DNA of 64,000 nt from Botryllus schlosseri (GCA_051294905.1 CM119373.1:31062001-31126000), one strand, 5' to 3'. Shown: positions 16,941 to 64,000, counted from the first letter of the stretch. The notes: generated from the sequence alone by a model not told the origin. Numbers and translations: made by a program.

Positions 16941-17103
16941 CTCTTGTTATTTTTCGGAAAGTACCTGTGGTTTCTTTGAGCAATAATCTTGACGTAAGCA
17001 GCAGTACTATGAGGACCTTAGGAAATATATACATTATTTGAAGAGCTTCTTGGAGGTACAGAACTTCAATATACAATTAAATAGTATATTCATATTGAAA
17101 TGA

Positions 17104-17238: not shown

Positions 17239-17964
17239 TCAATGTACTATTTTTAGGTGATACACGAACTCCTTTTGTTGACAGAGTTTTGGTTGGTGTA
17301 TTTTGATAAAAGTTGATTCCAAGGCACACAAATGAAAGTGTGAACGGCCTCGACCTACGATTCGAAATCGGTCGTCTCGATAATTATTCGCACAAATCGG
17401 ATTATCCAACAGATGTTTGCCGATGGCAGAATTAATGGCCTTTGATCGATCAGCATCAATCTTAAGTGGATGAGTTAAGGGTGAGCTTTTCACATCGCGT
17501 GACGCACGTGTTCTGATAAATCTGGGGACATGTTGGTTTATGCGGTCCTGCAGACGTCTTGACGTTCTTCCCACGTAGCCACAATCACAGTGGCACCTAT
17601 ATTCGTACACTACATTACTTTGTTGAAGTGCAGGAAGCACGTCTTTGCGTGCTGAAGGGAGCAGTTGTGTTGTTGTAAAAATCACATTGGTTTTGACTGT
17701 ATCGTAACATTTACCGACAGCAGAAATCAATTGTTTTTCAAAGCGGGTGGAAATGGGGCCAATCCAAGGTAGATGGATATAAACATCTTTTATTGTTCGT
17801 GCGGTGGGCTCTGTTCGTTTTTCTGCGTTTAATTGCGTTAATTTCCTCTCCATGCCGCGGCTGATGACGTGTTCAGGGTAACCGTTATCAAGTAAGATTT
17901 TTCGGATGTAGTCAAGTTCTAAACTCAGTTTGTTACCCGAACATATCATCAACGCTCTATGCAC
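17239..17964 (-). pseudogene. Penelope-like ORF C-terminus (RT thumb/linker plus GIY-YIG endonuclease), 5'-truncated
   Basis: LPWIGPIS...NVVYEYRCHCDCGYVGRTSRRLQDRINQH...SAIGKHLL...ALESTFIKIHQPKLC is the Penelope-type GIY-YIG signature; the RT core is missing. Confidence 0.9.
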
Positions 17965-18315
17965 GAGTGTGCCCTTAACTCACCCACTTAAGATTGATGC
18001 TGATCGATCAAAGGCCATTAATTCTGCCATCGGCAAACATCTGTTGGATAATCCGATTTGTGCGAATAATTATCGAGACGACCGATTTCGAATTGTAGGT
18101 CGAGGCCGTTCACACTTCCATTTGTGTGCCTTGGAATCAACTTTTATCAAAATACACCAACCAAAACTCTGTCAACAAAAGGAGTTCGTGTATCACCTAA
18201 AAATAGTACATTGAACGCTCTCTCATTCGAAATTTCATGCTGGTGACGTCATATTTTGTGATACGATTGTTGATATACAATGTTCTTTCCAATTCTCTAC
18301 TAGTTGCTGACGATT

Positions 18316-36500: not shown

Positions 36501-36858
36501 CAGTCGACGAGTCTCAGCCACAAATATTTAAATGTATTGTATATATTACTCGATTTTATACCTACATTTTGTAGCTCAAGTGTTTTGCCTGTATAAATCA
36601 GCCTAGCGGAGCGTGACATAGCACTGCTATCTCGGTCTGTTCATTGACAGGGATTTGAAAGTTACAGTGGCGTATTGGTAATTCATACTATCTTGAGAGT
36701 AATTCATTCTCGTTCATGTTACAACGAGGATATATGACGCAATGATGCAATGCAATAGCAGGGACATTAGACAACCACCGAACTTCTATAATAAAACTCA
36801 CTGACAATTTACTCTTAGTTCTAAGCCGCATAATGTAGCTACCTACAAGACGTTAAAG

Positions 36859-37350
36859 ATGTCGGGTCATATATTGATACATCAACGGGATTTTCTCAAC
36901 ATCAAAGAAGGAGGTCGACGAGCTAAACGGCACTTAAATAACATTGCACGAATAGAGGCCACTCTTGGCGGTCTGTCAATACTAATCTCTATTGGCACGA
37001 TAATACTGTCGACACCACAAGACGGACTTCGATTTGTAAACACACAGGACGGCATCGTAACTCACAGTTATCAAGGCATATGGAGTGGATCGCTTCTGAT
37101 TGTATGCGCAACTGTGGCGTTTCTGTCCGGCAAAAAGCAAAGCTCTGGGATACCTACCTTAAGTGTGATACTATCGACGGCGACTGCTATTGTATTATTT
37201 GTATCCGTGATATTATCTGTGTTATCTTCCACAGTCCATACGTACCTGGGGCAACCTATGATGGTTTTACTGCACGCGATTGTCATTGTTTTGGGGTTCG
37301 CGGGGCTAATCACGGTGGTTGTACAATGTACATTCATGCATTTCCGGTAG
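36859..37350 (+). CDS. Intronless four-TM CD20/MS4A-like protein (163 aa as read; probably frameshifted before its tail)
   Basis: Four TM segments with SYQGIWSGSLLIV (family TM2 motif). Stops right after TM4; a plausible tail continues in another frame to 37519. Confidence 0.8.
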   Translation: MSGHILIHQRDFLNIKEGGRRAKRHLNNIARIEATLGGLSILISIGTIILSTPQDGLRFVNTQDGIVTHSYQGIWSGSLLIVCATVAFLSGKKQSSGIPTLSVILSTATAIVLFVSVILSVLSSTVHTYLGQPMMVLLHAIVIVLGFAGLITVVVQCTFMHFR

Positions 37351-43449: not shown

Positions 43450-44031
43450 TCAGTATATTGGCTTTCCAGGGTCCTTTACGAGGTCTTCAATAACCACAGC
43501 ACTGGTTTGGTTTGATCGTGTGGTAGGTACAGCGGCGCCCAAACATTCCTGATTGACACAGCGGATAGTATGGGAAATTGCGATCGGCACAGTTACCACA
43601 CAAAGTCCCACGATCGCAATATGCATAGCAAATACGGTCTGAATACAAATAAAATCTCCTCCATTGGGCATAACAATCGATGTAGCTCCGTGTAGGTTCA
43701 TGACGCCGGCGACAATGCCCGACACGATATTTGCGACCTGCATCTGCTTTCCAACATTCTTTATTAGTGCCAAACCTAGTATTCCAAGAATAAGAGTCGA
43801 GACGCCAGCCAAGATCCCGGTACCATTTCTCGCGACACGTTTCAAATGATCCAAGTAGATATCAGTACATTCCCCGTGACCCCAATTGTGAAAGTTATAC
43901 GGACTGATAGCATATGTGGTCGGAATCAAAACAATTCCCAGCGATATCGCAGCAGATCCAATGATCAATTCTGCAATAGTGTGTGGTATGAGAAATCTTT
44001 TGTTCCTCTGTTTGCCTTCGGTCTGTTGCAT
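43450..44031 (-). CDS. Intronless four-TM CD20/MS4A-like protein (~193 aa), paralogue of the 7332 gene
   Basis: TM segments nearly identical to the 7332 gene; first ATG at 44031 (track start 44058 is GTG). Confidence 0.8.
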   Translation of the reverse strand: MQQTEGKQRNKRFLIPHTIAELIIGSAAISLGIVLIPTTYAISPYNFHNWGHGECTDIYLDHLKRVARNGTGILAGVSTLILGILGLALIKNVGKQMQVANIVSGIVAGVMNLHGATSIVMPNGGDFICIQTVFAMHIAIVGLCVVTVPIAISHTIRCVNQECLGAAVPTTRSNQTSAVVIEDLVKDPGKPIY

Positions 44032-46124
44032 CGTTCCAATATGTTGCTGTATGGTCACTTATGCTTGATTCGTGTCTACAGAAGGGTTGAACTATATCAC
44101 TGGCAGATTTTAGTATCAATTTACATTTATGCAGTAATATGATGCTCTGCAGAGAGATATAGAGGCATACATCTTTATCATATAGGTACACCGTATCCAT
44201 GCGAGTAGTATGGATTTGATGTTGCCGACACACGAGTGTTTTTGCTAACATTACCACACAACGTGGTACCCAAAAAGTGACCTTATCAATTTTGAAAGTC
44301 TATGGAGTACATGGCATGGCCTTCAATAAAGCAATTCAAATGAACGCTTGGGCCTTTAATGACTTTTCCTTTGGTTTCCAGGCTATTTTTGTTGACGACG
44401 CCCTTTGAAGCCCATGCATACACGCCCAGTAAATATAAAATTGGGGATATTTCTAGATTATAGGCCTGTAGTAAAAAGGTCATCAAAACATTTTATTTCA
44501 ATAAAATGCACCTAACGAAGCAAGTTGCTTGTTGATTTCATATTTCAGAAGGACGACGCACATTTTTTGATAGTGTAATACCCATCTCGGTATGTCAATT
44601 TATTGTGGGGGTTCGACTCGATCATTGCTACAACAGAACAACCGCCTTCGCACTAATATAGAGTGTAAAACATGACAAGAACATTAAGAGCTTTACAGCC
44701 AATAAGCGAAACATTCTGGAAGCCGGCCAAAGAGCGTTGGTTGTAAACCAGGTTGTCGCGAAGCTTTTCCGCCACAGGAGCCACATTGGCCCTTTATTTT
44801 CAGTTGTAATTCACAATGAGCCATCTTGCTCGGGTTGGACGATTCTCGTACTGCTGTATTTCAATAAGTAGGCATATTTCGGTTTGTCCCGAATCGATTA
44901 ATATACTTACACAGCGAAGCTCCTTGTATGATTGCGTGACCTTAAGTTTGTGTGCACACCTCTGTGCGATCCTATTGGTCATTTTGCGTACTGTATATAT
45001 AATAATCTGAGCTGAACTCGTTTGCAAAAACTCCAGACTTCATGGTTCGTTCAGATGAATATACTCAAACTCTCGTACATACGTTCCTGATTATATAATG
45101 GAAGAATGTATGATTAACCTCGGAAAACACTGCTTCACTTGTTCCCGGATGAAATTTTACAGTTACACTTCCAATTGATCAAAGCAACTATCAGCGTTGA
45201 AAAATAGTATTGACCGAATGCTGTCGTAGGAACTGTAAATGTATACGAATACCACCGATTATATAATTATGCGTCGCCAGGTGATGAATAAAAACAGTCA
45301 TCGTTTCGCATAACATTTGTAACAGATTCAACCCAAAACACGAGGAGATGTCGCTGATAAACTGTACTTTTTTGATATGTAGAAACTGTCGATGTGTGCG
45401 AATCGAATCAATAACTACCAGTACGTGTCGTCAGGCGATGAATTGAATGAAACCTTTTGGATAACGCTACCTATGCTTTTCTTAAGTGGTTCAACCCAAA
45501 ACACGTCACACTATCGCCCATTAACAGTACTCTTCAAACGTATAGGAAGTGTAAATGTGTACGAATCAAACCAGATCGAATAATAAAAACTATGGGAAAA
45601 AACGATGCGACGTATAAAAACGATTTCAAATAACATTGACACAAACATGACACAAAGGATATCAACATTGTACATTGTACATTCTGCGAGGCAATTTTGT
45701 TGACGACATTTCGTCTATTCATTTCTGAGCTTATTATCGACACTGGTCAGTTGAATAATGGCCGAAGTTTCTCAGCGTTGGTTCGAAAAGTAACCGCAGT
45801 GCTTCGATTGGACCAGATTTTCAGAACTTAAAAAGAGGACATATTTTAGCCAGCAAGTAACACGAAAGTATAACATAGTTACGTTAAAGTTTGATGAAGT
45901 TTTACATTTCTTTGGTATAGTTACAGTCAAAAGTTACAATAACAGACACTTAAATAACAAATCAAATCCAATTTTAAGATTCACCACATGAATACTGCGG
46001 GGCTCCCTTAACTTTTGCAGATGATCGATAGATTTAACGAGATCATGGTATTGTTTACACGAAATATTCATTGGAGTTATATACAAACATCAAGATGCTA
46101 AAAGCTAATGCAACTAATAGTCTG

Positions 46125-51075: not shown

Positions 51076-54000
51076 CAGTGGCGGCTCGTGACAATATCGG
51101 GTGGTGGGGCAAGGGCCGCAAGCGACTTGTTATCAATATGACGTCACAGTAGCGTTTTTCAACGTTCATGATGGCCACATGAATTTCCCGTAAAACAATG
51201 ATTTTTAACGTAGGTGCCGCGAGAGGTTTGCCGGTGGCGTGACTTGAAGTGCGGTAACAAATATTTTATTCATTGTTTTTTATTCAAATGATTATTTAAA
51301 AAATGTACGCGAACTAAGAATCGTTCCCATGCCACGAATCAATCATCAGGTTATCCTTAGTAGCATGCGTTATGATTTCGTGGTAGAGATTACGCAAGCG
51401 CCGAGTAAGACTATACCAAAAATACACAGACCAACTACCTACAAAGAGCATTCGCATGACACCTTGTGGTGTTTTAATCGTTCCATGCTCAGCAATTCTG
51501 TAAAGTGCTGCAGCGCCTCCGACCCGATTTGTATATGGATTCTCGTCCCGAAAGCGAGTCAAATCGATTTGCCCTCGTCCGAAAGTGTTTGGTACACGAT
51601 CCTGATGCGTTACGACCTGCAGGGGATAGGCAATCAAAGCGTTGGCACCCATAAGCGTAAAACATTATAAAAAGCCAGCTGTTATCCATGGAAGATTAAT
51701 TACGAGTCTGCCTGCCATCATTCAAGCAGGAATCACAGCATTGTGTTAAATTGAAATGCGAGCACATATCGCATTAAACAATTTCATGAATAAATTATTT
51801 CATCTTGATGAATTTTTCACTTTTTTTCCATAGCCATAACAAAATATATCGGTAAATTAACTGTCAGTGTGCCTCGAGTAATAAGGATGAAAACCACTCA
51901 CTTTTCCTTAGCCATAGACATGGTTGAGTTACCTGGGCTCACTTGATTGAAATTATTCGGAAAGAACATGATGTGTACAGTCGTCCGCCCACCAGCATTA
52001 ATTTATGTCTTGTATAAGTATTGTGCGCGACGTGATTTCTTATTAGCAAAATGTTCAATAACGAGTTTATTGAAATCTGGAATTCCCAGAACCACGTCGT
52101 TGTGAATCAAGAGAACAGCCAACGCATTAAGCCCATCTTGGCCCATCATGTTTCTGAGAAAGGTCTTGATACGTTTCAATGTGCTGAAACTGCGCTCGGA
52201 TTACGCGGATGAAATCGGGGTGGTCAAAATGATATTCAGAAAGCTAGTTACTGTAGCAAAGTTGATCGAAAGCGAATTTTCAACTAGGAATTTTGAAAGT
52301 TCACTAGTGGTTTTAATTTCCGAAAAGGATGTGTTAGAATACAAACAAGTCAACTCGCTCTCCAACCGAGCAATGTCGATCATCGGGTAATAACGAGGCA
52401 CGCTGCGCAGTAGTCCAGAAGGAAAATGAATTTTGTAGGCAGGGAAATTTCTCGGATTTAACAGGGCGAAAGTAACCAACTGGTCACTATTCAGACGATG
52501 TTGGATTTGGGACATCAGTATATCGCAACATTCGTAAGCCGCAACAAGCAGGTTTTGCACACTTATCCCACGACGTAAAAGCGCTGTGTCACCAGCGAAG
52601 TGTACATTCGCCCGGATATGCGAAATTGCCTCACAAAAATGTGCAATACACAATTTCGCAGTAGTACCATCGGCCATACGCGACTGAAAAGTGCTGTACA
52701 GTGTATCGACGTGCATGAAGATGTCACAAAAAAGCTTCAAAAAGAACAAAAATTCTTCGTCTTCCAGGAGTCGTTTAAGCCCCGCCGCTTCACGTATGGA
52801 AGTATCATCCGAGACAGGAGAACTCTCAATCACTGAGAAGCATTCCAGAAGCTCCACCCTACTCTCTGACACTCGTTGCACAACTCTGGATTGGAAGTTC
52901 CACCGTGTTGATACGCATCTAGGTAACCGGTGCTTGCATATGTCGCGCAATAGATCAGATCGCTTTGGCGGAACAGAGAAAAAGGAGGAGAACCCTGAAA
53001 GATTTGCAAAGAATATCTTGACAGAAGATATTCCTAAGCACATTTTTTTCACTACAAGATTGAGCTGATGCGCGTAGCAATGCAAAAAATGCGCATGCGG
53101 GTAAACTTCTTTCATTAAAACTTGTACGCTATGTCGCGATCCGCTCATGACTGCTGCGCCGTCGTAGGTTTGCGCAATAAGTTTCGACTCAACTGAATAG
53201 GGCTGTAATGTTTTTTTTAATACGTAAGAAATTCCGACAGCAGTGCGATCGTCAACAGCCACAAAGCTGTGGAATCGTTCGACTGGCATACCAAATTTCG
53301 TGAACCGAAAAATCACGACTAGTTGTGTCAAACACGTAATGTCAGTTGTTTCGTCAGACTGAATAGATAGAAATTCAGCGTCAACAATCTCGGTAAACAA
53401 ATGCTGTAGATAGATGTGATATATCGAATCAAGCACATCATTTTGAATAGTCTTTGAGGTACCCTTAGCTACTGTCGCGGTGTCGAGATGTTCGCGCAAA
53501 ATGCTATCAATGGAAGCCGTGTATTTAATTAGATCCAAAAATACCCCCCTATTGAGAGAGCATTCCTTCTCATCGTGGCCTCGAAGGGGCAATTCATGAA
53601 CTCCAATAAATTTAATGGCATCAATCACCCGAGAGAGAACATGCCTATTCTTATCTACAAGCTCATTGTGCTTGCAGACTGATACGCGATAACTTTCATT
53701 GAGCTGCGACATTACATTTACTCTGCCAAACAATTTATATTTAACTGCACTAGCCATGTGCACTTGGGATTTTTGGTGCGTTTTCAGACGCTCTGACAAA
53801 TGCTTCAGATCGCGATAACCAATTTTGTTCCAACAAGAGCCACTGCTTCCGGTACCGGCACTGTCGAATAAAAGACAGTAAAAGCAAAACAAGGCGTTTT
53901 TATCCTCGCCATAAGTAAGCCATTCATTTTTATCGAAATGCGCTGAAGAAAAGGCACGAGTGCGCTTTCCTCCGGCGTACGATTGGATCAATGGGCAATT

Positions 54001-54121
54001 TCTAGGCTGATACGGACCTAGTCGCTTTACCTCTAATTTTTGCTCTAAAGGCAGCTGGCTAAACGGCGTACGGAGCAAAGATTCAACACGATTCATGTTC
54101 GCACTTGACCTGACTACTTAT
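51076..54121 (-). mobile_element. hAT DNA transposon (ZMYM1/PRKRIR-like clade); only the 3'-side terminus is visible
   Basis: Terminus cagtggcggctcgtg at 51076 interrupts the host MITE (putative TSD ctttcaac, 51068-51075); transposase at 52003-54096. The matching cacgagccgccactg end was not found in the window, so the right coordinate is a lower bound. Confidence 0.8.
52003..54096 (-). pseudogene. hAT transposase with a single premature stop at 52201-52203
   Basis: TTF-type Zn finger (WLTY...LFCFYCLLF), DUF4371-like LRGHDE, SDETTD, TYDGAAVMSG, HCYAHQLNL and STRW motifs. After TAA the same frame continues SERSFSTLKRIKTFLRNMMGQDGLNALAVLLIH to a stop at 52003. Confidence 0.92.
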
Positions 54122-54489
54122 CTGCAGAAATGGAAATGACTATAAATCGAGAGATTGCGTATGCCTAACTGGAAAGGTCAACGAGTTCGGACACATACGC
54201 AATTGTTATCTCATAGATTGGACAAGGAAATGTCGGTACTTGTGAAATAAGTGCCCGGAGGTCTAGGCGGCAATAGTTGTTGCACCATAAAATGGGTGTG
54301 TAGTGGGATAGTAAGTGTTTTGCATGTACATTGAAATGAGGGTGAAAAAATCATTAGGCCTGGTAAGGAACAAGTGAAAAAAATAACCCTGTCATAGGAA
54401 TAACACGGGATTAAAATAGGAGAGAGTCAGTACACATGAAACGCCAAGAAAAAGGGGGGTTTGATCCGCCAAAGACGATGGGGAGTTGA

Positions 54490-55473
54490 TCGACGCCACA
54501 TGTCGTATTATTTACTTGCGCAGATACGCGGAAAAGAACATACAATGTGTTGAGTTTGGTCGAATCGGGTGCATTGCTAAACACACGGGATTGTGTGATA
54601 TTTCTGAGAAATCACGGGTTGTTGGTGCGAAGGATGAAATGCAAGCGATGTAAAAAAATAATGAAAGAGGAAATTACGCCAACAGGCGATGATGGATTTA
54701 GGTGGCGATGCAACCCCTGTGACACTACGGCGACTATACGGAAACACTCGATATTCGCGGGAAGCAAGGTAGAACTTCCCAAATTATTAATATTGTTCTA
54801 CTTTTGGTCCCATGACGCGTTGCAAACCCAAATTTCGCATGAAGCCGAGATTAGCCAACGTTCAACGGTCACCTGGTGTGGCCGATTGCGAAAGCTTTGT
54901 ACGGCCGAATTTCACAGGAATAAGCGACGTTTGGGAAATGAAGGCGGTTGTGTAGTTATTGATGAAACGCATCTGGCTAAGCGTCGGGTTGCCTCAGACA
55001 AAGGACCAGCCGTTAAAGCCATTTGGGCGTTCGGGGGAATAGACAAAGCCACCGGAGAAATGTTCATCGAAATAACTTCTGACAGGACTGCTCAAGTATT
55101 TCGAAAGTTCATAGTAGAAAATGTGGCAGAGGGGTCCACAATTTTAACCGATGCCTACCCTTCCTACAGGGGCATAGAAAGCTGGGGGAAGGGTTATATA
55201 CACGGTGTAGTGGACCACTCCCGGTGGTTTAAGGACCCTCGGACAGCTTTTTGTACTAATGAAATCGAGGGGGCCTGGGGACAGCTTAAATATCATTTAC
55301 ATAGGTCTCGTGGTTTGGCACGTCACCTTTTGGCCGATTACGTAGGGGAGTTTTTGTGGAAACGTCAACATCAAAAGACTGACCGATTCTTGGCACTCCT
55401 GCGCACCATACACAATGATCCACGGTATAATTTTGACAAATTTGATGGGTCTCCTGTATTACCACATTTGTAA
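54490..55473 (+). CDS. Merlin/IS1595 (ISXO2-like) DDE transposase, apparently intact; true start unresolved
   Basis: Zn-ribbon CKRC...WRCNPC; catalytic VVIDET, ILTDAYPSY, HSRWFKDP, TNEIEGAW and YVGEFLWK motifs. Frame open from 54490 without ATG until MKCKRC; acceptor-like ttatttacttgcgcag ends at 54523. Confidence 0.92.
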   Translation, partial: STPHVVLFTCADTRKRTYNVLSLVESGALLNTRDCVIFLRNHGLLVRRMKCKRCKKIMKEEITPTGDDGFRWRCNPCDTTATIRKHSIFAGSKVELPKLLILFYFWSHDALQTQISHEAEISQRSTVTWCGRLRKLCTAEFHRNKRRLGNEGGCVVIDETHLAKRRVASDKGPAVKAIWAFGGIDKATGEMFIEITSDRTAQVFRKFIVENVAEGSTILTDAYPSYRGIESWGKGYIHGVVDHSRWFKDPRTAFCTNEIEGAWGQLKYHLHRSRGLARHLLADYVGEFLWKRQHQKTDRFLALLRTIHNDPRYNFDKFDGSPVLPHL

Positions 55474-55602
55474 ACCCCGTTTTAAGGTTCCAGGACGGAA
55501 ATGACGACATCTGTTGTTTTGTGTTTTTACAGACGGTAGTCTAGGTCTAGTGCGCGATTATATTTAGTTTATGACGTGGCGAGAACCACCACTGTCTGTG
55601 CC

Positions 55603-58119
55603 ATGGACCTCCTTCCTTATTCTCTGTCTATCCTTGTTGGTATCATTTGTACGTCTGATGTGGTGCTGCATACGGCGGCGAAAGGCATGCACGGACTTGC
55701 AGATCCTGTAACAAGTAGGGCACGGTCTTTCACTCAGGGGACGCTAGGGGAACTACGGGGACCCCTGCCTGAAGAATGGATCACTCTAAATGATACACAA
55801 TGGGAGGACTATCACTTGATGAGCATTTTCAACAAAACGGCGGAGCGACATGTATATAGACGGCCTGAACTATTTTACAGCAAGTCATTTGGTTACGTAG
55901 TAGCTGAGCGTGTTTCATTACAACAAATGGCGTTTCCACATGGAAGATATTGGACAAGTGTACAAGATTTTGAACGCACCTGTCTCTGTCAACGGCGCCT
56001 GGGCCAAATCATGCCCAATATTTCCTATGATGTCCTTAAACAAACGAACATGTTCGTGCGTCCAATAGGGTATTATAGGATTCGTTGGTTCTGGAGTGGG
56101 GACCAATACATGTCGTTTCATGACCTTGGCAAGAATTACTCTATGTTTGCTCTGACCAAATTTAAATTAATTATGATGAGGCTATTCGAAAGTTATTCAG
56201 CTATTGAAGCATCATGCCGTCAAGAGCCTATGGGAGACCGGGACAGAGCCGAAATAAATGAATTGAATAAGTATAATGCCAGTAGCAATAGTTTTACACA
56301 ATGCTGGCATCTAATACAAAAAAGAGCCTATCGGGGCGACTATTGGCAACAGTTGTACTCCTATAGGGAGAAAGGGGTCATATTGGGAATCTGTACAAGG
56401 TGTGATTTTAGAGGAGTTATCTCTGCCCTGGAACCAAATAAGGCAGATATAATCATCCAAGAAATAGTAATGACTAAAGTAAGTAACGTGCAGTATGTGC
56501 GCACTCCATTGATACCATGCCGGGCTCAGGGGGGATGGATTAATCAGGACTGGTTTGAGCACTTATGGCCAAGGGGTCGTGTAATAGCCCATTCGTGCAA
56601 CTTCTGGCCAGGAATGAATACCACTCTATGGGGTGATCTACCAACGACAAATTTTCCTCCCAGAGTAAAATGGATACAACCGTCTTTTCCAAATCTGGAT
56701 CACAGTGTGTATGCTAATCGTGGCAATCAGGGCATGAGGTGGAATAACCTTTTTGATGGTGTGCCGACTAGGTTTAAGGCATCTACATCAACATGGGTAC
56801 CTTTTCCCAGGCCTATGTGGAAATTCTTCCCCTCTCTTACTGCATCGGATGAAGCATGTAAAAATAGAATATCACATAACCAGGATTTGTGCCGCGACCC
56901 TGTAGGAGGACCCATTTTGAAGGCAGCCTTTTGGGACCATGTTCATTTTGATCCGGAGCTAAACCGACCACGCTTCCCAGGGGGACCAATAGAAATTAAA
57001 GGTGAATTGGTATCAAGCAATACCGCCCCACGGGGTACGCGTAGAAGGCGTAAAAGGTTCCTGGCAGGACTGGTATGTCTCGTTTTTGCTGCGATATCAG
57101 CGATCGCCGTCGTTGCGACAGTTTCATCCCAGTTACATGAAGAAACATTGGATCTTAGCCGACAAATCAATAATAGAATGATACAGGCCACGCAGAGGTC
57201 CACTGCACTAGGGAGAAAGATTAACGAACTCTCTCTTCTGCAAATAACCCAACAACAGAAACTGGATCAAACGATCGCTACCATGGAAATGAGGACAACG
57301 TTAACAAATAAACGACTTGTACTAATGGAAAAGTACATAGAAAGAAACCGACAAATGATAGTACGACAAGCCACAGCATCCCTGACCTCTTTTCAAAACT
57401 ATAAGGAAATGAGCGAAGCTGAACTGGCCCTTGATCGATTGGTTTTGGACGAGTTGGCTAATTTAACTGGCAAGTTAATATTCGACTCCAGCAAAGTATA
57501 TCTCACAAAAATCCGACAAGGAACGCTACGGATAAAAGAACACGCTCAGCAATTAATAGCCTATAGAGACGCTTACATCAATGAGACGAATGACATTGGG
57601 GAAGAGCTACGTGCTAACCGAATCAGTCTAGATCAAGCCCAACAGGGTGTGGATTTGGGTTTACAAGTTTGGAGAAAAGATCTAAATAAGAGTGTGTACA
57701 TGAATATTTCTGATTGGCGATATGAGAATATTACAATTAAGCCTTTCGAATTTGTTGGAGGAAAAGAATTTATGAATAACTTGGGCCAAACGATAGAAGA
57801 CATGACACATGGTGTAGGAAGCTTGATAAAATCAGTAGGAGATAGCACAGGAGATCTTCTACAAGATGGATTAGGTGCGGTCGGAGGAATATTCAATAAG
57901 GGAGTGAGCGGAATTTTTTCCGGCCTGGGGTCTGTTCTAATTCCAGTAATTTTGATATTGGGGGCCGGGATCATCTTGTTTTGTGGCTGTCGTTATAGCA
58001 GTCTTTGCTGTCCTAAGTTAAAACCTAAGGTACAACGGCGGAACACGAATACTCAGTTGACGATGTACATATCATCGGCATCGAACCCCGTTAAAACGGC
58101 CAAATCGACAAGAATGTAG
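55603..58119 (+). CDS. Viral envelope-like fusion glycoprotein (class-I-like, ~838 aa)
   Basis: gccATGg start; signal peptide; many N-x-S/T sequons; RRRRKR|FLAGLVCLVFAAISAIAVVA (furin site plus fusion peptide at 57040-57120); long heptad-rich region; Gly-rich amphipathic pre-TM segment; TM VLIPVILILGAGIILF; Cys-rich tail. Confidence 0.85.
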   Translation: MDLLPYSLSILVGIICTSDVVLHTAAKGMHGLADPVTSRARSFTQGTLGELRGPLPEEWITLNDTQWEDYHLMSIFNKTAERHVYRRPELFYSKSFGYVVAERVSLQQMAFPHGRYWTSVQDFERTCLCQRRLGQIMPNISYDVLKQTNMFVRPIGYYRIRWFWSGDQYMSFHDLGKNYSMFALTKFKLIMMRLFESYSAIEASCRQEPMGDRDRAEINELNKYNASSNSFTQCWHLIQKRAYRGDYWQQLYSYREKGVILGICTRCDFRGVISALEPNKADIIIQEIVMTKVSNVQYVRTPLIPCRAQGGWINQDWFEHLWPRGRVIAHSCNFWPGMNTTLWGDLPTTNFPPRVKWIQPSFPNLDHSVYANRGNQGMRWNNLFDGVPTRFKASTSTWVPFPRPMWKFFPSLTASDEACKNRISHNQDLCRDPVGGPILKAAFWDHVHFDPELNRPRFPGGPIEIKGELVSSNTAPRGTRRRRKRFLAGLVCLVFAAISAIAVVATVSSQLHEETLDLSRQINNRMIQATQRSTALGRKINELSLLQITQQQKLDQTIATMEMRTTLTNKRLVLMEKYIERNRQMIVRQATASLTSFQNYKEMSEAELALDRLVLDELANLTGKLIFDSSKVYLTKIRQGTLRIKEHAQQLIAYRDAYINETNDIGEELRANRISLDQAQQGVDLGLQVWRKDLNKSVYMNISDWRYENITIKPFEFVGGKEFMNNLGQTIEDMTHGVGSLIKSVGDSTGDLLQDGLGAVGGIFNKGVSGIFSGLGSVLIPVILILGAGIILFCGCRYSSLCCPKLKPKVQRRNTNTQLTMYISSASNPVKTAKSTRM

Positions 58120-58206
58120 TGCACGCATATGTACTCAAAGGATTTTACTTTTATTAATTTAAATTTTTTCAAAAGTCCACAGATATACTAACTAATTTAT
58201 AATAAT

Positions 58207-61200
58207 ATGAATCGTTACCTTAAATTATGGATTGTGCTGGCAGTAGCCTTAACACTACACCGAGGATATCTTCAAACTCATGGCCAATTATTGCCCCTAT
58301 CTGCTATGAGTGTGAGGTTAGCATTTAATCTTACAGGATGGACAACGTTCCGGTATCAAGGTCTCAGATACATCCGCCTTAATCGTCTATTCAAATTAAA
58401 CGAGAGTTGGCCAATAGGTGAAACGGAAAATAATTTTCCAATATACGAAGAGACGCCCAAATTTGGTCCAACACGAGCTAGTCAGGATCAATTGTACAAG
58501 TTATTTGCACCCTCGGGGTCTGACAAGAGGTATTGGAACGATGTTAGACAATACGAAAGAGAATGCGGGTGCAATCGGAAACTATCAAGAATATCTCCCG
58601 ATATTACGTTGGCAGCCTTTACCAGAACCACAACATATCGCCGAAAGAATAACTTTGGCTTAGTACATACATGGAAGTATGTGGTAGGAAGGGAAGAACA
58701 TGGCACTATGGCTGTGCCGGGTCCGATCCTTCGGATGATATCTCCTAATGCTACTCCACAAGTTACTATACATCAACTGTTGACGGTGTACAAGTTATCA
58801 GTGATGAATATCTTGGCACAATATGCAACAGTGACAGCAAGGTGTCAGCAGCGTTTCGAAGAAATCGCGGGATGGAGAGTCAATAAAGGCGAATTTAACG
58901 TATGTGTGCACGGAGAAGACAACCAGATGCAATGCATAGGATGCTCATTTTATACAGAGGATCTGGCAGTAAATATACTTTCCAGAGACTTTGTGGTCAT
59001 GGAAATAGATAATAGCATAAGAGGATTAGGGACGAGAATGCAAGAAACTTATTCCTACAGTCAATGGCCAGCGGGAGTCAAATTACCCAGATTACATCAC
59101 GACATCGTGTGGTTGAAGGCTCGAAATGAGACGGGCCCCAGGGAGAGGCCAGCAAACTTTGATGGTCATACTTGGTTTAGATTGAGGATTTACGCTCTCC
59201 GCGAACATCTGAATAATGATACTCAACGGATAATGGGGAAGAGAAATTTTCCGACTATGTTGCAAGGCAGCATAGAATGTGAACGTAAAAAAAATCAAAA
59301 GGTTTGTCGAAATTCAATAGGAAGTTTAAAGACGGCATTGGCCTTTAAGGAAGTGTTATATGATCCATATACAAATCAACCCGTGTATGCAGATCATAGC
59401 AATGGTCGTTTACGAATTGCATCTCCAAAACCTGCAGGTCAGGAATCTCCCCTCAAAGCATGGCCTAAGAGTCTACCCAAGTGTAAACAACCCGGTAGAT
59501 TAGGCGACTTTATCCTGACTGCATCATTTAAAAGCAATGGGCAAAATACAAGGAATATGGACTATTATCTAGCTCGCCTAGGAATGTATTACGTAGAAGC
59601 AACAAAACGGCGGTTACGCCAGTTATCTTTGCCCATATATAAAATGCGGAGAAAACTGGGGAGATTGGACAGGTCCATAACTGGTGAAGAGATGGAGTCT
59701 CTAAGTCAGGCGCTACGGTCAGCCTTGACACCTCAGAAACTGAGTAGGATAAATGAAGAATTACTGAGCTATATGTCAACACGCAAGCTCATAGAGGTGC
59801 AGTTTCATGATATCCGGATATTCCGACCAAGTGTGGCCTACACAGCCACAATATGTGCTGGAATATTGGTGTATACGCCTTATGCCTATAAGGACAATAA
59901 CAAAATCAGAACTAACTCTGAAATGCCATTGAGTACCGCGGAATCAATAACGACAAAGGCTGTAAATTTTGAAGGAACCACTCGAAAAGTACCTTCTAGC
60001 TCCGTAATGCCACGAAGTAACGCGGAAGCAATAACGACAAGGACTGTAAGTTACGAAGGAATCACTCGAGAAGTGCCTTCTAGTAGCGAGACTGGTATAT
60101 GGGTTGATATCACTTCTGTTGTAGCGACTCCAGAACCCGCTGTGACACGGGTAAAAACCATAACAATTACTGAGGAAAATGTAAGAATGACGAATCAATA
60201 CGACACTAACCAATATAACTACGATTATATAGAAGGTTACGACGAAGGAATTAGCTATGCCGGTTATGACGATAATACTAGTTTTCAAGACGCTGGAAAT
60301 TACTACTACGATTATTATGACAAAGACGGAGAATATAATGTTTTATTAAAACATAGGCCCATACAGATAGCTTATACTACGGATTCTACAAATATTATTG
60401 AAACTACAATGGCATTACCAATGATTGAAACTCCAACATCAATTAAAAATACTCAATATACGACTGAGTTAACAACAGATACGACAATTTCCACGCCAAA
60501 AACGTCTGCACATACGTCAGATAGTATTACGACCACTTTATCCACTGCTGCAATCACACCACATACTGGAGGGTTGACATCGGCTATTGCTATTTCCGAA
60601 ACGACTTCATCAACATCGCTCCCAGCCATATTGACTACTGTGCATTCCTCACGCGAAGATAACACCGGCCCAAGACCAACTACATCTATTATTACATTCT
60701 TAACTACGGTGAAAACTGTTAGTGAGCAAGAAAGACGCAGGACGAGTCCCACTGATATTTTCACAACTGTGGAACCATCTATGGCTATATCAGCAGAGAT
60801 GGACACTCAGAAAAGCATTGGTATTGCCACGACAGGAGTCACCTTTTCTGAAAGTGGGTTAACAACACGTGTACCAATGGCGAGAAGTGTAAAAGCAAGG
60901 TTACAATGGAATACCATGACCTATCAAATACCCTCAAAAAATGGTGAAATGTTAGGCTCCTTATCCGTGCCAATAAGGAAAACATCCCAAATTACGCAGA
61001 TACCTGAGTCTTACATACAATTAAGTCATCACGCAAATCAAATCAAGGACACGACACCGCCAAGAGCGCATTTCAATATGTTGTTTGATACATCACAAGT
61101 AGCAACGACAGTTGAAACGCACCAATACTTCGTCACCAGCAAGTCCCGCTCTAATACAGAACCAGATAATTTAAACAAAAAGCAAGATCTACAGGTAAGA

Positions 61201-61689
61201 ACTAAATCAACGTCAATGCTTTCATCAGGTGACTATCAGAGCGATCCCACATCAGTAAGTAAAAATGATGTGATCAGAAGTTGGAAGAGTACTTCCAATA
61301 GTGCACTTTCTTCAATTACACCCTCTATCGAAGAAGAAGGAAAAACTACACTCAGTATACCGCATACCTTACCTACGGCCAGATATGACAGATTGGACCG
61401 AATTACATTTGACTTCTATGGACGATTGCACAAACTACACGAAATAGAACAAGGATATGCATCAGGTAACATTATTGTGGATATTAACAATAGAAAGGAT
61501 TTAGAAGAATCACTTAACAATTATGTCTTGATTTTTGCGGTTAGCGTAACAACAATGGTAGGATGTATGTATCTTTGTTATGCGAAATGCGGGAGAGTTG
61601 CAGCAAAACATTATCTTAAAAAGGTTGTTCGGCGGAATAACCAAAAGACGTATATTACAGCAGTAACATTGCATGAAAAACTGAGATAG
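58207..61689 (+). CDS. Type-I membrane glycoprotein with Cys-patterned head and Ser/Thr mucin-like stalk (1160 aa); putative attachment protein
   Basis: Signal peptide MNRYLKLWIVLAVALTL; head shares motifs with the upstream glycoprotein; Thr/Ser-rich ~59900-61380; TM YVLIFAVSVTTMVGCMYLCYA (61522-61584); short basic tail. Confidence 0.8.
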   Translation: MNRYLKLWIVLAVALTLHRGYLQTHGQLLPLSAMSVRLAFNLTGWTTFRYQGLRYIRLNRLFKLNESWPIGETENNFPIYEETPKFGPTRASQDQLYKLFAPSGSDKRYWNDVRQYERECGCNRKLSRISPDITLAAFTRTTTYRRKNNFGLVHTWKYVVGREEHGTMAVPGPILRMISPNATPQVTIHQLLTVYKLSVMNILAQYATVTARCQQRFEEIAGWRVNKGEFNVCVHGEDNQMQCIGCSFYTEDLAVNILSRDFVVMEIDNSIRGLGTRMQETYSYSQWPAGVKLPRLHHDIVWLKARNETGPRERPANFDGHTWFRLRIYALREHLNNDTQRIMGKRNFPTMLQGSIECERKKNQKVCRNSIGSLKTALAFKEVLYDPYTNQPVYADHSNGRLRIASPKPAGQESPLKAWPKSLPKCKQPGRLGDFILTASFKSNGQNTRNMDYYLARLGMYYVEATKRRLRQLSLPIYKMRRKLGRLDRSITGEEMESLSQALRSALTPQKLSRINEELLSYMSTRKLIEVQFHDIRIFRPSVAYTATICAGILVYTPYAYKDNNKIRTNSEMPLSTAESITTKAVNFEGTTRKVPSSSVMPRSNAEAITTRTVSYEGITREVPSSSETGIWVDITSVVATPEPAVTRVKTITITEENVRMTNQYDTNQYNYDYIEGYDEGISYAGYDDNTSFQDAGNYYYDYYDKDGEYNVLLKHRPIQIAYTTDSTNIIETTMALPMIETPTSIKNTQYTTELTTDTTISTPKTSAHTSDSITTTLSTAAITPHTGGLTSAIAISETTSSTSLPAILTTVHSSREDNTGPRPTTSIITFLTTVKTVSEQERRRTSPTDIFTTVEPSMAISAEMDTQKSIGIATTGVTFSESGLTTRVPMARSVKARLQWNTMTYQIPSKNGEMLGSLSVPIRKTSQITQIPESYIQLSHHANQIKDTTPPRAHFNMLFDTSQVATTVETHQYFVTSKSRSNTEPDNLNKKQDLQVRTKSTSMLSSGDYQSDPTSVSKNDVIRSWKSTSNSALSSITPSIEEEGKTTLSIPHTLPTARYDRLDRITFDFYGRLHKLHEIEQGYASGNIIVDINNRKDLEESLNNYVLIFAVSVTTMVGCMYLCYAKCGRVAAKHYLKKVVRRNNQKTYITAVTLHEKLR

Positions 61690-61994
61690 ATATTGTGAAA
61701 ATAATTACTGAATTATTGTAAAGGTAGAAGTTAGGGTTGTTATGTGTTGTGTTGTGTTCGGCCCGTTTTCACGGATTAGAGTCCATGTGAAATTAACTAT
61801 TAACCTAAATTTAATTCCGTTGAAATAACATAGTTTAAAAAAAATCATGCTGTATTTGTTTATGGAAGCCTAAAATTGTACGGAATTTGAGAATGTACGA
61901 GGCAAATTTGCGGTATTAACGGTGATTATACAATGACTATTATTGCGAAATACATAATTGCGAAATTTTCGGATGGTATTGCTAAGCCAAATCG

Positions 61995-62128
61995 GGATTA
62001 AGTAATGCAGTAGTGAGAAAATATGGAAGCAGTAAAAATGGTAGGATTGAGTAATACAGTAGTGAGTAAATATGGAAGCAGTAAAAATGGTAGGATTAAG
62101 TAATGCAGTAGTAAGTAAATATGGAAGC
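61995..62128. repeat. 49-bp tandem repeat, about 2.7 copies
   Basis: Units start at 61995, 62044 and 62093 (ggatt(a/g)agtaat(g/a)cagtagt...atatggaagcagtaaaaatggta). Confidence 0.95.
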
Positions 62129-62719
62129 GGGATGGCGTGATTTTTGTACATGTTGCAATAGCATATTGAAACGGCAAAATACGACCCCAATTGAGGGGTT
62201 GATCACGCCATTGCAAAACTCTTGCACAATAGGCCACAACTAATGGTGGGAAAGGAAGCGCTACAGTGGGTAATTGACGAACAGGAAATATTTAACTGCA
62301 GCAAAAGGGTGAAATTTGTCTGTAATGGGGGGCTTAATTATGCCTGAGTACAAAGGATAGCGACAAAAATTTGCTTGATGAATGTTCGGAAGGACGCCAA
62401 CCCCCTAATTTACGAAAATAGCAAATTGCTCGTGGTGATGGAGGGTGCATGCGCGTTAACGATCTTCCGCTCAAAAATGGATAAAACGCGGAGCGCAGGA
62501 ATGGAAAATCAGTTGACTCCACATCAAACTGTAAGGTGTTAGGGGAGTTGAGGGCTGGTAGCAGTTGGAAAGAAAATTTTTTTTTTTCAAATTAACAGCA
62601 ATAGGACATGCCATAATGATTGAAATATGGGCAAATATAATACGCAATGACAGAGACTTAGACTGTCCAGTTACGGATATCTAATCTCCGTGTGATAGTT
62701 AGCTTATCCATATATAGGT

Positions 62720-62870
62720 TGACACCAGTATTGGGGTGACTCGGGTCAAATGCTTTGAGTGGTTTGACCTGGAGCGGTTCGCTTACAGGGAACGAGTGTC
62801 TTGGCTTGACTCGGGTCGCATTGAGAGTCGATTGACTTGGACTTGACTCGAGTCAGAATGTGCGTTAACT
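62720..62870. repeat. GACTCG/GACTTG subterminal-type repeat of a host MITE family
   Basis: gactcgggtc and gacttgactcgagtc motifs as at 23.6-23.7, 47.4 and 48.3-48.5 kb; suggests a return to host-type repeats. Confidence 0.6.
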
Positions 62871-64000
62871 GGAAGTGACTGGTGTATCGAAGGTCGTGTT
62901 TTTGTCCCAGCACTAGTTGACACTCAACAAGTTTTGGTATGTCAAGAAAATAGACCTGAATATAACTTGGGTCATCATGGTACAGACTGCCAATATAATA
63001 TTATCGCGTGGAAACTGTATCAGTTATACCAAATGTTACTAAAAGTAGAAAAACTAATGCTCACCTTTCCATAAAGGGGAGAGAGAAAATCAACGTGGTA
63101 CTTATAGCTATGATATGAGACTTATATTGTGATCACTCGCTGCACTGATATCCTTATTATACAAAATTAAACACCCGATACTAATTCAATATAAACGCTG
63201 GTGTCTCACGGTTAGGATGATTAGGATTGCATGAGATAGCATGACATACGGATATAAGCGTAAAGTATACTATGAAATAGAATCACGACACGCCAAGCAC
63301 TCGCTCACTCATAATGTGGCCTGTGTCTAAAAAAGGTATGGATAATCCCTGCTAAAGACATTTGAAAATACAATCACTTGAGGCAAATAATGATAGTAGA
63401 TCTGGAATTTTAAGGTTTATAGTATCAGCCTGCTGTCAACGCGCTTTGCTACTGTAGTTGTTCTTTACATAACTTAAATCTAACAATATTGGGTAACATA
63501 GGCGCCAACTTACGGGATTACGAGGTGGTGCAGCCACCTCGTGACCACATTTGCGGGGTGGCGGTCACCTCGTACAAAATGCTCAAACGCTAAAGTGATT
63601 TGAGATTAGTAATCAGTAATCAGGTGAATCGATGCGACCTCGTTAGAGACGTCTTCGATTTCGGTATGCGCGTGTGCCAGGTGCAGCCACGGGGATTTCG
63701 GGGGTCGAACTTGTCTATTTTGAAACGCGAAACTCTGTCATTTTAAAATAATCATTGGAAATCTAATATTCAGCTGCAATTCAATAATTGTGTAATCAGT
63801 GTTCCGCGCGGCGGGTTTGCGAGAAACGTATTGTCAATTAGCGAGAGGTATCTGTGTTTATCTCCCGCTGAGATGGTCGCGAAATTAGATCATTCATTCC
63901 TGTGCGCATGGAAAACTTCGCAAGCCTGATTTATCGCGTCTAGATAAAGCCTGGTTTTGCAGGCCTAACAATCACATCTGCAATAGGCCCAGTTCCCACT

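Follow-up and report, generated by a model that had tools for sequence, protein, structure and literature searches.

A 40-kb gag-pol element with Merlin-type transposon ends in Botryllus schlosseri that appears to insert as an opened circle

The marine invertebrate Botryllus schlosseri hosts a 39,928-bp element that combines Merlin-type ends and 8-bp target-site duplications (TSDs) with the core of a retroelement, and that appears to insert as an opened circle via its transposase. The unit is classed as a retroelement because its ~40 kb carry gag, protease (PR), reverse transcriptase (RT), RNase H, and a tRNA primer-binding site (PBS); it is best read as an Ortervirales-like lineage in which a Merlin/IS1595 DDE transposase replaces the retroviral integrase. 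We favor, with moderate confidence, a reverse-transcribing and probably enveloped element with circular DNA that the Merlin transposase opens and inserts in the manner of phage lambda. The 64-kb window, i.e., the whole stretch of DNA analyzed, holds the left part of the element, and the remaining ~30 kb continue past its end. The features in the window are:

52201-54096: hAT-type ORF of 631 aa, a neighbor of the element
54227..54234, no strand: left TSD, 8 bp, GAAATGTC, with an exact second copy after the right end
54235..54257, plus strand: left terminus, a 23-bp imperfect terminal inverted repeat (TIR) beginning with GG
54490..55473, plus strand: tnpA, Merlin/IS1595-type DDE transposase (Pfam, motifs, dN/dS)
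55603..58119, plus strand: gp1, 838-aa type I membrane glycoprotein (ORF, motifs, dN/dS)
58207..61689, plus strand: gp2, 1160-aa membrane protein (ORF, BLASTP to gp1, dN/dS)
61690..64000, running past the window: start of a largely non-coding internal region of ~12 kb, common to other copies

A preliminary description, confined to the window, had reported three uninterrupted plus-strand ORFs with gaps of ~90–130 bp and proposed that the transposase and both glycoproteins form one mobile unit. The ORFs were recovered, with gaps of 129 bp (tnpA–gp1) and 87 bp (gp1–gp2), and they belong to one multi-copy unit with shared termini, of which they occupy only the left fifth. The remark that most neighboring elements are decayed holds in part, but the hAT-type ORF is an exception. 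Both ends of the unit are 23-bp TIRs (GG...CC), complementary at 17/23 positions. The left boundary is sharp and common to six other loci; a genome search with the left terminus gave 46 matches (0 in the control), and 45 end pairs were found. Aligning copies, as had been advised, defined TSDs of exactly 8 bp in 12/14 copies tested and of 9 bp in 1/14, with none in 1/14. At the locus under study, RNA reads derived from host-repeat copies that carry no insertion cross from position 54234 into the sequence after the right TSD. TSDs measure 8 bp in Merlin/IS1016 elements versus 3–6 bp in LTR elements, according to passages of PMC10045372. A TIR closing a short Merlin element between 55473 and 55603 was looked for, and copies compared across the genome have no terminus between tnpA and gp1. 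Within the element, we found no repeat longer than 88 bp, no flanking LTR pair, and no internal copy of the ends, and an Rfam scan of 60 kb including both ends returned no ribozyme and no other Rfam family. Across copies and subfamilies, element size ranges from 18 to 40 kb.

The assignment of tnpA as a DDE transposase was borne out by a match to Pfam DDE_Tnp_IS1595 (E 2.9e-10), a CxxC...CxxC motif, and intact D, D, and E residues. The frame is open over 54490-55473 and its first ATG lies at 54634; because a conserved N-terminal part precedes this ATG, behind a conserved acceptor-like AG (54522-54523), the true start is probably spliced. PF12762 scores above cut-off in both tnpA and a second intact transposase, tnpB, located past the window, and the dN/dS of tnpA is 0.06–0.09. 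A same-strand transposase lies within 800 bp upstream of gp1 at 52/53 scored gp1 loci and no terminus separates the two genes; thus, their adjacency is not due to chance, and the suspicion that they occur independently elsewhere does not hold. Nor are the glycoprotein genes single-copy host genes, as they are multi-copy within the mobile unit; gp1 is present in the unit of 40/42 pol loci.

The furin site and mucin-type stalk reported earlier are both present in the predicted glycoproteins. By motif and hydropathy, gp1 shows the signs of a class I fusion protein, for which it is a candidate: an N-terminal hydrophobic stretch (signal peptide), a furin site (RRRRKR, residues 480–485) followed by a hydrophobic, fusion peptide-like segment (486–504), and a C-terminal transmembrane (TM) segment (778–796), along with 11 N-glycosylation sequons. 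The basic site and the hydrophobic peptide after it recur in 8/8 aligned gp1 rows. The AlphaFold model is of low confidence (pLDDT 35), Foldseek returned no fold match at E ≤ 0.001, heptad periodicity reached p < 0.05 in only 1/15 windows, and Pfam matched no fusion family; Atlas matches to spike/F/HA reached only 0.88–0.90, at low recognition, and matches to spike glycoproteins were weak (E 0.27–6). gp2 is a candidate attachment protein, with a stalk of 30% Ser+Thr (residues 561–1050), a C-terminal TM segment (1106–1124), and an N-terminal domain paralogous to the surface part of gp1 (BLASTP E 5e-10). gp1 and gp2 are two paralogous env-type genes of a new family that lacks a Pfam model and comprises 52 representatives at 50% clustering. 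The dN/dS is 0.18–0.22 for gp1, and for gp2 it is 0.21–0.30 over residues 1–560 and 0.38–0.45 over the full length.

Beyond the window, the whole element is coded on the plus strand and contains the following features, with positions in the coordinates of loci L014 to L017:

L014:3918 to L016:2188, plus strand: accessory block of ~15 ORFs
L015:2256-3305, plus strand: LRR protein, in the accessory block
L015:3994-4941, plus strand: tnpB, second intact Merlin transposase, in the accessory block
L015:6086-7780, plus strand: IAP with three BIR domains and a RING, in the accessory block
L016:525-980, plus strand: E2 enzyme, in the accessory block
L016:3086-3110, plus strand: conserved 25-bp motif upstream of the PBS
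L016:3335-3352, plus strand: PBS, 18 nt, matching the sequence of host tRNA-Ile(AAT)
L016:3660-6482, plus strand: gag, 940 aa
L016:6575-9895, plus strand: pol (PR-RT-RNaseH-Tpt1), without integrase
L017:4140-4162, plus strand: right TIR
L017:4163-4170: right TSD, directly after the right TIR

The absence of gag and RT noted in the preliminary description is true inside the window, but only because the window ends before them: both sit 24–30 kb beyond its end, inside the element. The window alone does show just the three ORFs, which had been taken for a simple DDE transposon with captured env genes or for a fragment of a large DNA virus, and the IAP, E2, and LRR genes now found past it are typical of large DNA viruses. 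However, both ends have been mapped with gag, PR, RT, RNase H, and the PBS between them, and the 18 ORFs scanned past the window include no DNA-virus core gene (polB, packaging ATPase, or DNA-virus capsid family), leaving either version exceedingly improbable. Likewise, no piggyBac transposase, herpesvirus core gene, recombinase family, or RNA ligase gene was seen among the scanned ORFs. Judging from the function of their families, the IAP and E2 proteins probably act against the host's apoptosis and ubiquitin defenses.

At 325 bp ahead of gag and 33 kb in from the left end, the PBS is internal rather than beside a terminal LTR; the conserved motif upstream of it looks like an internal LTR signal. 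With the PBS so far inside and no internal repeat above 88 bp, transcription of a linear copy cannot yield the complete genome RNA. Exact matches to a 15-mer of the PBS number 53 in the genome and 0 in the control; among the 15 outside known copies, 10 are tRNA-Ile(AAT) genes and five have an extra TGG, like the element. The PBS is also kept in a neighbor element whose proteins are only 25–52% identical, and the exact 15-mer is retained in 12/15 copies without a scored gp1, these short copies being largely related and not independent events. A capsid region in gag is a lead only. A family scan detected no rve integrase in pol or 17 other ORFs, and tblastn with 20 rve-bearing Pols, part of which end in RT rather than integrase, matched the element in the gag-pol region alone, as far as RNase H.

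RNase H is joined to a Tpt1/KptA domain in both genome copies scanned and in P0002 (Pfam), and similar C-terminal motifs are retained in P0003 and P0004. By analogy with its family, this domain probably removes 2'-phosphates or ADP-ribosylates nucleic-acid ends. The fusion lends some credit to a route in which the circle forms at the RNA level, by ligation or back-splicing, Tpt1 clears the junction 2'-phosphate for RT, and the transposase integrates the cDNA circle with no DNA excision; Tpt1 is described in the literature as taking the 2'-phosphate off RNA ligation junctions. Yet both ends of such an RNA would have to coincide precisely with the TIR tips, neither an Rfam ribozyme (60 kb scanned) nor an RNA ligase gene was seen, and the motif upstream of the PBS resembles an internal LTR signal, which makes this route improbable in our view.

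The RT active-site motif is YIDD, and its best PDB sequence match is the ‘Enzymatic polyprotein’ 8r0s (E 4e-19), which we take to be the cauliflower mosaic virus RT. In a midpoint-rooted tree with a long-branch warning (2/49 rows dropped), whose reference set contains no caulimovirus, retrovirus, or Bel-Pao sequences, eight rows are split from 39 Gypsy-like rows by a 100/100 branch with a length of 2.33, which places the RT, as judged from these sequences, on a long branch separate from the Gypsy-like rows.

Purifying selection acts on all four genes tested (RT, transposase, gp1, and gp2), with dN/dS of 0.04–0.45 overall and 0.04–0.11 for RT and transposase, and internal stops are absent from 39/42 pol loci and 46/54 gp1 matches. 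Within a subfamily, dS is ~0.22–0.28, but TSD pairs differ at 0/105 bases (upper bound 2.8%); thus, copies diverged before insertion, under selection, unlike host-replicated cargo. Along with the conserved PBS, this is an indirect pointer to movement by reverse transcription. These data bear on the reading of a large Merlin transposon of the cut-and-paste kind that at some time took up an env-bearing LTR retroelement and carries it as passive cargo, with the RT unused. The TIRs, TSDs, and DDE enzyme are indeed of DNA-transposon type, deletion derivatives exist, and no junction RNA was seen in low-depth reads. However, purifying selection on RT, gp1, and gp2, the stop-free pol and gp1 copies, divergence before insertion, and the persistence of layout and PBS in a relative at 25–52% protein identity largely refute this reading, which we consider very improbable.

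Gene order is circularly permuted between subfamilies: gp1 comes first at 35 pol loci, and the order is pol-transposase-gp1 at five. In the permuted subfamily, two copies have no terminus between pol and transposase, and the right terminus comes after gp2, with five different flanks; a left end and TSD were looked for and not located. Read on a circle, the order is PBS-gag-pol-transposase-env-env-accessory. Linear tandem copies that rearrange could be another source of the permuted order.

In the cycle that we infer, with its circle, particles, and membrane fusion, the opened-circle element would proceed in four steps. (i) Transcription: the template would be a DNA circle with right and left ends joined, on which one internal equivalent of an LTR, immediately before the PBS, would give a terminally redundant RNA. 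This RNA would run PBS-gag-pol-(end junction)-transposase-gp1-gp2-accessory genes, an arrangement that follows the usual retroviral one, except that the transposase stands where the integrase would be. (ii) Reverse transcription: Gag would package the RNA, and tRNA-Ile would prime its conversion into a one-LTR-type circle. (iii) Entry: gp2 would bind cells and gp1 would fuse membranes. (iv) Integration: the transposase would cut the circle at the end junction and insert it with an 8-bp duplication, generating a permuted provirus like prophage lambda, which the same enzyme could re-excise as a circle. For the bacterial IS1016-group element ISApl4, a circle was detected by inverse PCR, as described in part of PMC12561309. 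The RT would have to copy a very long RNA, of 40 kb. No right-end/left-end joint was present in the RNA reads examined, which cover 3–6% of three raw runs at a body depth of ~0–3.4x, with 24/190 loose ends listed.

The low expression of integrated copies, which give very little RNA, also fits an episomal, pararetrovirus-like enveloped virus replicating from a nuclear circle, whose Merlin-integrated copies never leave and represent dead-end endogenization of virus or defective genomes. High synonymous divergence with perfect TSDs fits many independent captures from such a circulating population, and the match to 8r0s points the same way. Against it, the element keeps two intact transposases and ends that hardly vary, and 13 copies of 10–16 kb without a scored gp1, at separate loci and most with the PBS similarly far from the right end, suggest spread within the genome, although co-circulating defective genomes could also explain them. 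We regard this virus as unlikely, and retain a slight preference for a so far undescribed family of animal viruses, enveloped and reverse-transcribing, with genomes of up to ~40 kb and a circularly permuted provirus that a Merlin DDE transposase both inserts and excises.

To our knowledge, reverse-transcribing elements with gag and protease integrate via a retroviral integrase or a tyrosine recombinase, or never integrate; no description of such an element or life cycle was found in the literature searched. A tRNA-primed gag-pol-env core joined to DNA-transposon ends and a Merlin transposase in itself blurs the class I/class II divide, and LTR-based annotation would miss the family entirely. 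The family further contributes a new group of glycoproteins, along with a DDE enzyme whose ends enclose inserts of 40 kb. If the circle model is correct, the element would bridge pararetroviruses and retroviruses and show an integrase-less circle regaining precise integration, which is testable with simple junction assays. It would be a ‘temperate’ retroelement of eukaryotes, with an attachment site like that of lambda, and a further independent integration route for retroelements, beside rve integrase and tyrosine recombinase; it carries a new envelope family of two genes and a Tpt1 fused to the RT.

In prophage lambda, as proposed for this element, a circular genome is opened internally, and the integrated order is a permutation of the packaged order; lambda uses an internal attachment site, a tyrosine recombinase, and DNA replication, whereas this element would use a DDE transposase and reverse transcription. 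DIRS-like retroelements have a tyrosine recombinase and split repeats or an internal complementary region; this identity was rejected, given no recombinase family among the ORFs scanned and no internal copy of the ends. Merlin units are typically small. The Merlin/IS1016 group of IS1595 shares DDE motifs, TIRs, and the 8-bp TSD with our element, in the passages of PMC10045372 and PMC12561309 that treat it; unlike transposase-only Merlin/IS1595, the element spans 39.9 kb with gag, pol, env-type, and accessory genes under selection. Teratorn, a piggyBac-alloherpesvirus fusion of medaka, likewise holds a virus genome within cut-and-paste TIRs and TSDs, with intact viral genes in many copies; portions of PMC5601938 and PMC10175614 propose its excision to a circle and report that particles were not found. 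Compared with Teratorn as described there, this element has a reverse-transcribing viral part, a Merlin/IS1595 transposase, a size of 18–40 kb, and an order permuted between subfamilies. Caulimoviridae also have capsid-PR-RT-RH without integrase and tRNA-primed reverse transcription, and transcribe terminally redundant RNA from a circle, as this element would (PMC7660458). They are non-enveloped, 7–10 kb, tRNA-Met primed, and plant-infecting, with no integration phase (PMC7660458), whereas this element has envelope-type genes, a tRNA-Ile site, precise TSD-bounded transposase-type insertions, and an animal host.

Metaviridae share gag, PR-RT-RNase H, and a tRNA PBS upstream of gag with the element, which differs in having no rve integrase, no LTR pair, TSDs of 8 rather than 3–6 bp, two paralogous env-type genes outside any Pfam model, and an RT that appears to sit on a long branch of its own. 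Errantiviruses and Oikopleura Tor have flanking LTRs and a retroviral integrase. Like our element, these and planarian Burro combine gag, pol, and env in invertebrates, according to sections of PMC13524379 (errantiviruses), PMC4402516 (Tor), and PMC6431247 (Burro). Burro further resembles it in exceeding 30 kb and carrying BIR and ubiquitin-related domains, but has flanking LTRs and a retroviral integrase (excerpts of PMC6431247). Kuafuorterviruses/Troyka, also a divergent RT lineage of marine invertebrates, differ in their LTRs, integrase, 5–6 kb size, and IADD/VADD/LADD motifs in place of YIDD, as covered in part of PMC11673190.

Relatives of the element are present in other public assemblies. 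In subfamily G, the transposase is at 56% to tnpA and gp1 at 64% to the neighbor element; the distances for transposase and for gp1 thus do not always agree, so that modules get swapped.

The three open reading frames (ORFs) of the preliminary description, a transposase followed by two glycoproteins, are present as described and form the left part of a 39,928-bp element. This feature is real and its architecture is categorically new; its life cycle would include a circle, particles, and membrane fusion. The sharp left boundary at 54235 is common to six other loci in a genome search, and beyond the window the element continues, on the + strand throughout, with ~12 kb of largely non-coding DNA, an accessory block, gag, and pol. 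The main features are as follows (L-numbers denote coordinates in fetched loci, bare numbers the window).

54235: left end of the element
Frame open from 54490, first ATG 54634, + strand: tnpA, Merlin transposase (PF12762, E 2.9e-10)
55603-58119, + strand: gp1, 838 aa, with a furin-type site (480-485), a hydrophobic peptide (486-504), and a transmembrane (TM) segment (778-796)
58207-61689, + strand: gp2, 1160 aa, with a stalk of 30% Ser+Thr and a C-terminal TM segment
L016:3335-3352, + strand: tRNA primer-binding site (PBS), 325 bp 5' of gag, with 33 kb of the element on its left and 6.8 kb on its right
L016:3660-6482, + strand: gag
L016:6575-9895, + strand: pol, with a Tpt1 domain at its C-terminal end
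L017:4162: right end, 267 bp 3' of pol, complementary to the left end at 17/23 positions

The 8-mer preceding the left end recurs directly after the right end, and an empty site is confirmed by RNA reads of uninterrupted host-repeat copies, which run from 54234 straight into the sequence following the right target-site duplication (TSD). The preliminary description regarded the three genes as a candidate mobile unit, and comparing copies for shared termini, inverted repeats, and TSDs bore this out. The two end motifs have 46 and 49 genome matches, compared to 0 and 1 in controls; by position they form 45 end pairs, leaving over one left and four right ends, with a scored gp1 match inside 30 of the 45 and a median length of 39.7 kb. 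The TSD is exactly 8 bp in 12 of 14 copies tested, 9 bp in one, and missing in one. Further 8-bp TSDs were identified by eye in one copy of a 26-kb subfamily and one 12-kb deletion copy, and the neighbour, an 18-kb distant relative lying tail-to-tail with this copy, has its own. According to PMC10045372, Merlin/IS1016 elements make TSDs of 8 bp; those of LTR elements and retroviruses span 3-6 bp. The insertion point lies within a transcribed host repeat, just upstream of a 631-aa hAT-type ORF (DUF4371; 52201-54096, - strand).

The genes also travel together, as the preliminary description proposed: a transposase lies within 800 bp upstream at 52 of 53 gp1 loci (54 matches scored of 146 candidates, two being merged). 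For pol, 42 of 1676 candidate loci were scored; 35 are downstream of gp1, five just upstream of transposase-gp1, and two lack gp1. The earlier readings, i.e., a simple transposon with glycoproteins or a fragment of a large DNA virus, now seem extremely remote.

The surface part of gp1 and the N-terminal domain of gp2 are paralogues (E 5e-10); at its N-terminus, gp2 has a visibly hydrophobic stretch that falls below the hydrophobicity threshold used. From its sequence, gp1 is a candidate fusogen. AlphaFold models (single-sequence or 8-row alignment) were uninformative (pLDDT 35), Foldseek with the 8-row model gave no match, and Pfam, run on 32 of the 52 homologues of gp1, detected no fusion family apart from a sub-threshold Foamy_virus_ENV match on the database relative P0104. 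In four subfamilies, a conserved tnpA N-terminus (54490-54633; also L054, L056, and L058) lies 5' of the first ATG, behind an acceptor-like AG. On a circle, the gag-pol side could be the source of the start exon. An ATG-plus-donor exon upstream of tnpA is not supported, being found in only 3/7 copies. Splice-acceptor scores of at least 8 precede 7 of 18 ORFs versus 16% of background, a weak enrichment.

A Pfam scan of 18 of the ORFs beyond the window identified LRR, a second IS1595-type transposase, 3xBIR+RING, UQ_con, RVT_1, RNase H, and PTS_2-RNA, with a CCHC knuckle slightly below the cut-off. Against solved structures, the PTS_2-RNA domain of pol matches Tpt1 (E 1.3e-8). As a lead only, the middle region of gag gave Atlas feature matches to Retrotrans_gag/Ty3 capsid (0.89-0.92). 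A slippery-type heptamer is found at the gag/pol overlap in both this copy and the neighbour. An 89-aa single-TM ORF (L016:3382-3651) begins shortly 3' of the PBS, its start being kept in the related loci L084, L087, L094, and L095. A 68-bp direct repeat (78%; L016:1621-1686 and 3007-3074) lies 5' of a conserved 25-bp motif and ahead of the ORF that precedes it; it may be a duplicated promoter element.

Six-frame comparison of 20 integrase (rve)-bearing Pols with this copy, its neighbour, and parts of a permuted subfamily (copies with pol ahead of transposase-gp1) gave matches confined to gag-pol up to RNase H. The longest repeat within the element is an 88-bp duplication inside gp2, and no Rfam family matched in the 60 kb scanned, both ends included. 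Similarly, rve is absent from three close external Pol relatives (36-45% identical), while most of the remaining 73 Pol matches (at most 29% identical) carry it. In an RT-RNase H tree of 47 rows (2/49 dropped; midpoint root, no reference families included), five genome copies and the three external relatives are separated from 39 Gypsy-like rows by a branch with 100/100 support and a length of 2.33.

This copy and the neighbour share only 52% identity in Pol, 37% in Gag, 34% in gp1, 25% in gp2, and 41% in the transposase. Upstream of gag, significant DNA matches between them are limited to two, the 25-bp motif at L016:3086-3110 and a block of 18 bp. The 15-mer core of this block has 53 exact genome matches versus none in a control; 38 were assigned by position to element copies, and the 15 others, when fetched, comprised 10 tRNA-Ile(AAT) genes and five matches with an upstream TGG as in the element, four of which have related downstream sequence. 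The TGG, missing from all 10 tRNA genes, is the complement of the CCA added post-transcription. The block is an 18-nt tRNA-Ile(AAT) PBS. Its exact 15-mer occurs in 37 of 45 end pairs, including 12 of the 15 without a scored gp1, many of which are mutually related and not independent. The 20 loci scanned first had no tRNA genes, and an earlier PBS candidate near 62557 was discarded as unconserved in other copies. L091 has a full tRNA-Ile primer site with unrelated sequence 3' of it, and may represent another retroelement family with the same primer.

From a tRNA primer, reverse transcription in retroviruses and caulimoviruses first copies RNA on the 5' side of the primer site, after which it requires terminal redundancy (PMC7660458). 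The element has a single internal primer site and lacks repeats, which leaves a circle or a tandem as the only possible templates for a terminally redundant RNA. On a circle, the order would be PBS-gag-pol-[joined ends]-transposase-gp1-gp2-accessory. Given this template requirement and gene order, the reading we moderately favour is a one-LTR-type circle; the Merlin enzyme would open it at the joined ends, insert it, and also be able to excise the integrated copy. A bacterial IS1016-group element makes such a circle, according to PMC12561309. No end-to-end junction was seen in RNA, with 3-6% of three runs and 24 of 190 loose ends covered and a depth of ~0-3.4x, which is too low for start sites, splicing, or junctions; element RNA is mostly sense in one single-cell run. 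Circularisation might instead occur at the RNA level, assisted by the Tpt1 domain that pol carries, which we consider improbable.

The permuted subfamily bears on the DNA circle. Here, accessory genes and a second Merlin transposase (tnpB) precede pol, and pol and the transposase share a frame with a single TAG between them (L054:3-1487, L055:3-1472), so that the two could be expressed as a Pol-transposase fusion, by readthrough or splicing, with the transposase in the integrase position. No terminus lies between the two genes in either of two copies, and the right terminus, 3' of gp2, is homologous to that of this copy and has five different flanks. On a circle, the main-gene order of both arrangements is identical, and the opening point alone differs; integrated prophage lambda is likewise permuted in gene order. 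Four approaches found no left end for the subfamily, one giving a chance-level result. Its right terminus (L063:791-813) has 74 genome matches, far exceeding the scored coding copies, which suggests a large non-autonomous family.

Comparing copies for dN/dS, another proposal of the preliminary description, revealed purifying selection on each gene tested: relative to this copy, dN/dS is 0.06-0.09 for tnpA (4 pairs), 0.04-0.11 for RT-RH-Tpt1 (5 pairs), 0.18-0.22 for gp1 (4 pairs), and 0.38-0.45 for gp2 (4 pairs; 0.21-0.30 in its N-terminal domain). Internal stops are missing from 46 of the 54 gp1 matches, and the same holds for 39 of the 42 pol loci. Within the subfamily of this copy, dS is 0.15-0.28 (four more distant pairs are saturated), and the TSD pairs of 13 copies differ at 0 of 105 bases (bound 2.8%); the copies therefore diverged before insertion and, in each gene tested, under selection. 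This is the pattern expected if the element passes through an error-prone replicating phase, and not if it is host-copied cargo; retroelement genes that are passive cargo seem very improbable. We regard an episomal virus whose integrations are dead ends as unlikely.

A gp1 profile search of 1.84 billion proteins returned 52 representatives at E<=0.001. The longest contig listed is 246,134 bases for the Pol relative P0004 and also for the gp1 relative P0087, which suggests that the two may be linked in another assembly. A marine metagenome yielded one 4.7-kb contig with a related gag-pol, too short for ends or transposase; metagenome contigs contained no gp1 relatives, and viral contigs no related loci.

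The element falls outside the DIRS definition. It has Merlin ends and departs from Merlin organisation; its replication would resemble that of a caulimovirus, and it falls outside Caulimoviridae. Like Teratorn, it would be a virus integrated via a DNA transposase (PMC5601938 and PMC10175614). Having neither integrase nor LTR, it is excluded from Metaviridae as delimited in PMC13524379, PMC4402516, and PMC6431247, and it is also outside Kuafuorterviridae (PMC11673190). Searches of the openly accessible literature, Repbase and the PMC11673190 and PMC13524379 supplements aside, returned no description of it.

The 18-kb relative (C3; L017:~7830 to L020:~3270, minus strand) lies ~3.7 kb past the right end and has the same order as this copy: transposase, gp1, gp2, one ORF, PBS, gag, and pol. 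L017:~4765-7830 is a 3-kb repeat of little coding capacity with dozens of genome-wide copies (92-99% identical), and L020:5037-8521 is another transposon-like unit, in which 219-bp inverted repeats flank ORFs of 177 and 529 aa, the latter without a Pfam match. The non-coding region of this copy includes three 49-bp tandem repeats (61995-62141), and gp2 an 84-bp duplication (59912-60079). A 246-aa open frame (17239-17979, - strand), without a Pfam match at E<=0.01, resembles a Penelope-type RT tail/GIY-YIG endonuclease. A cluster of short multi-TM ORFs (7332-7937, 16293-16946, 36805-37350, 43450-44058; L003:29-859) includes one with a weak CD20/MS4A-like Pfam match; 1.7 Mb from here, the same contig holds another element copy flanked by a similar ORF.
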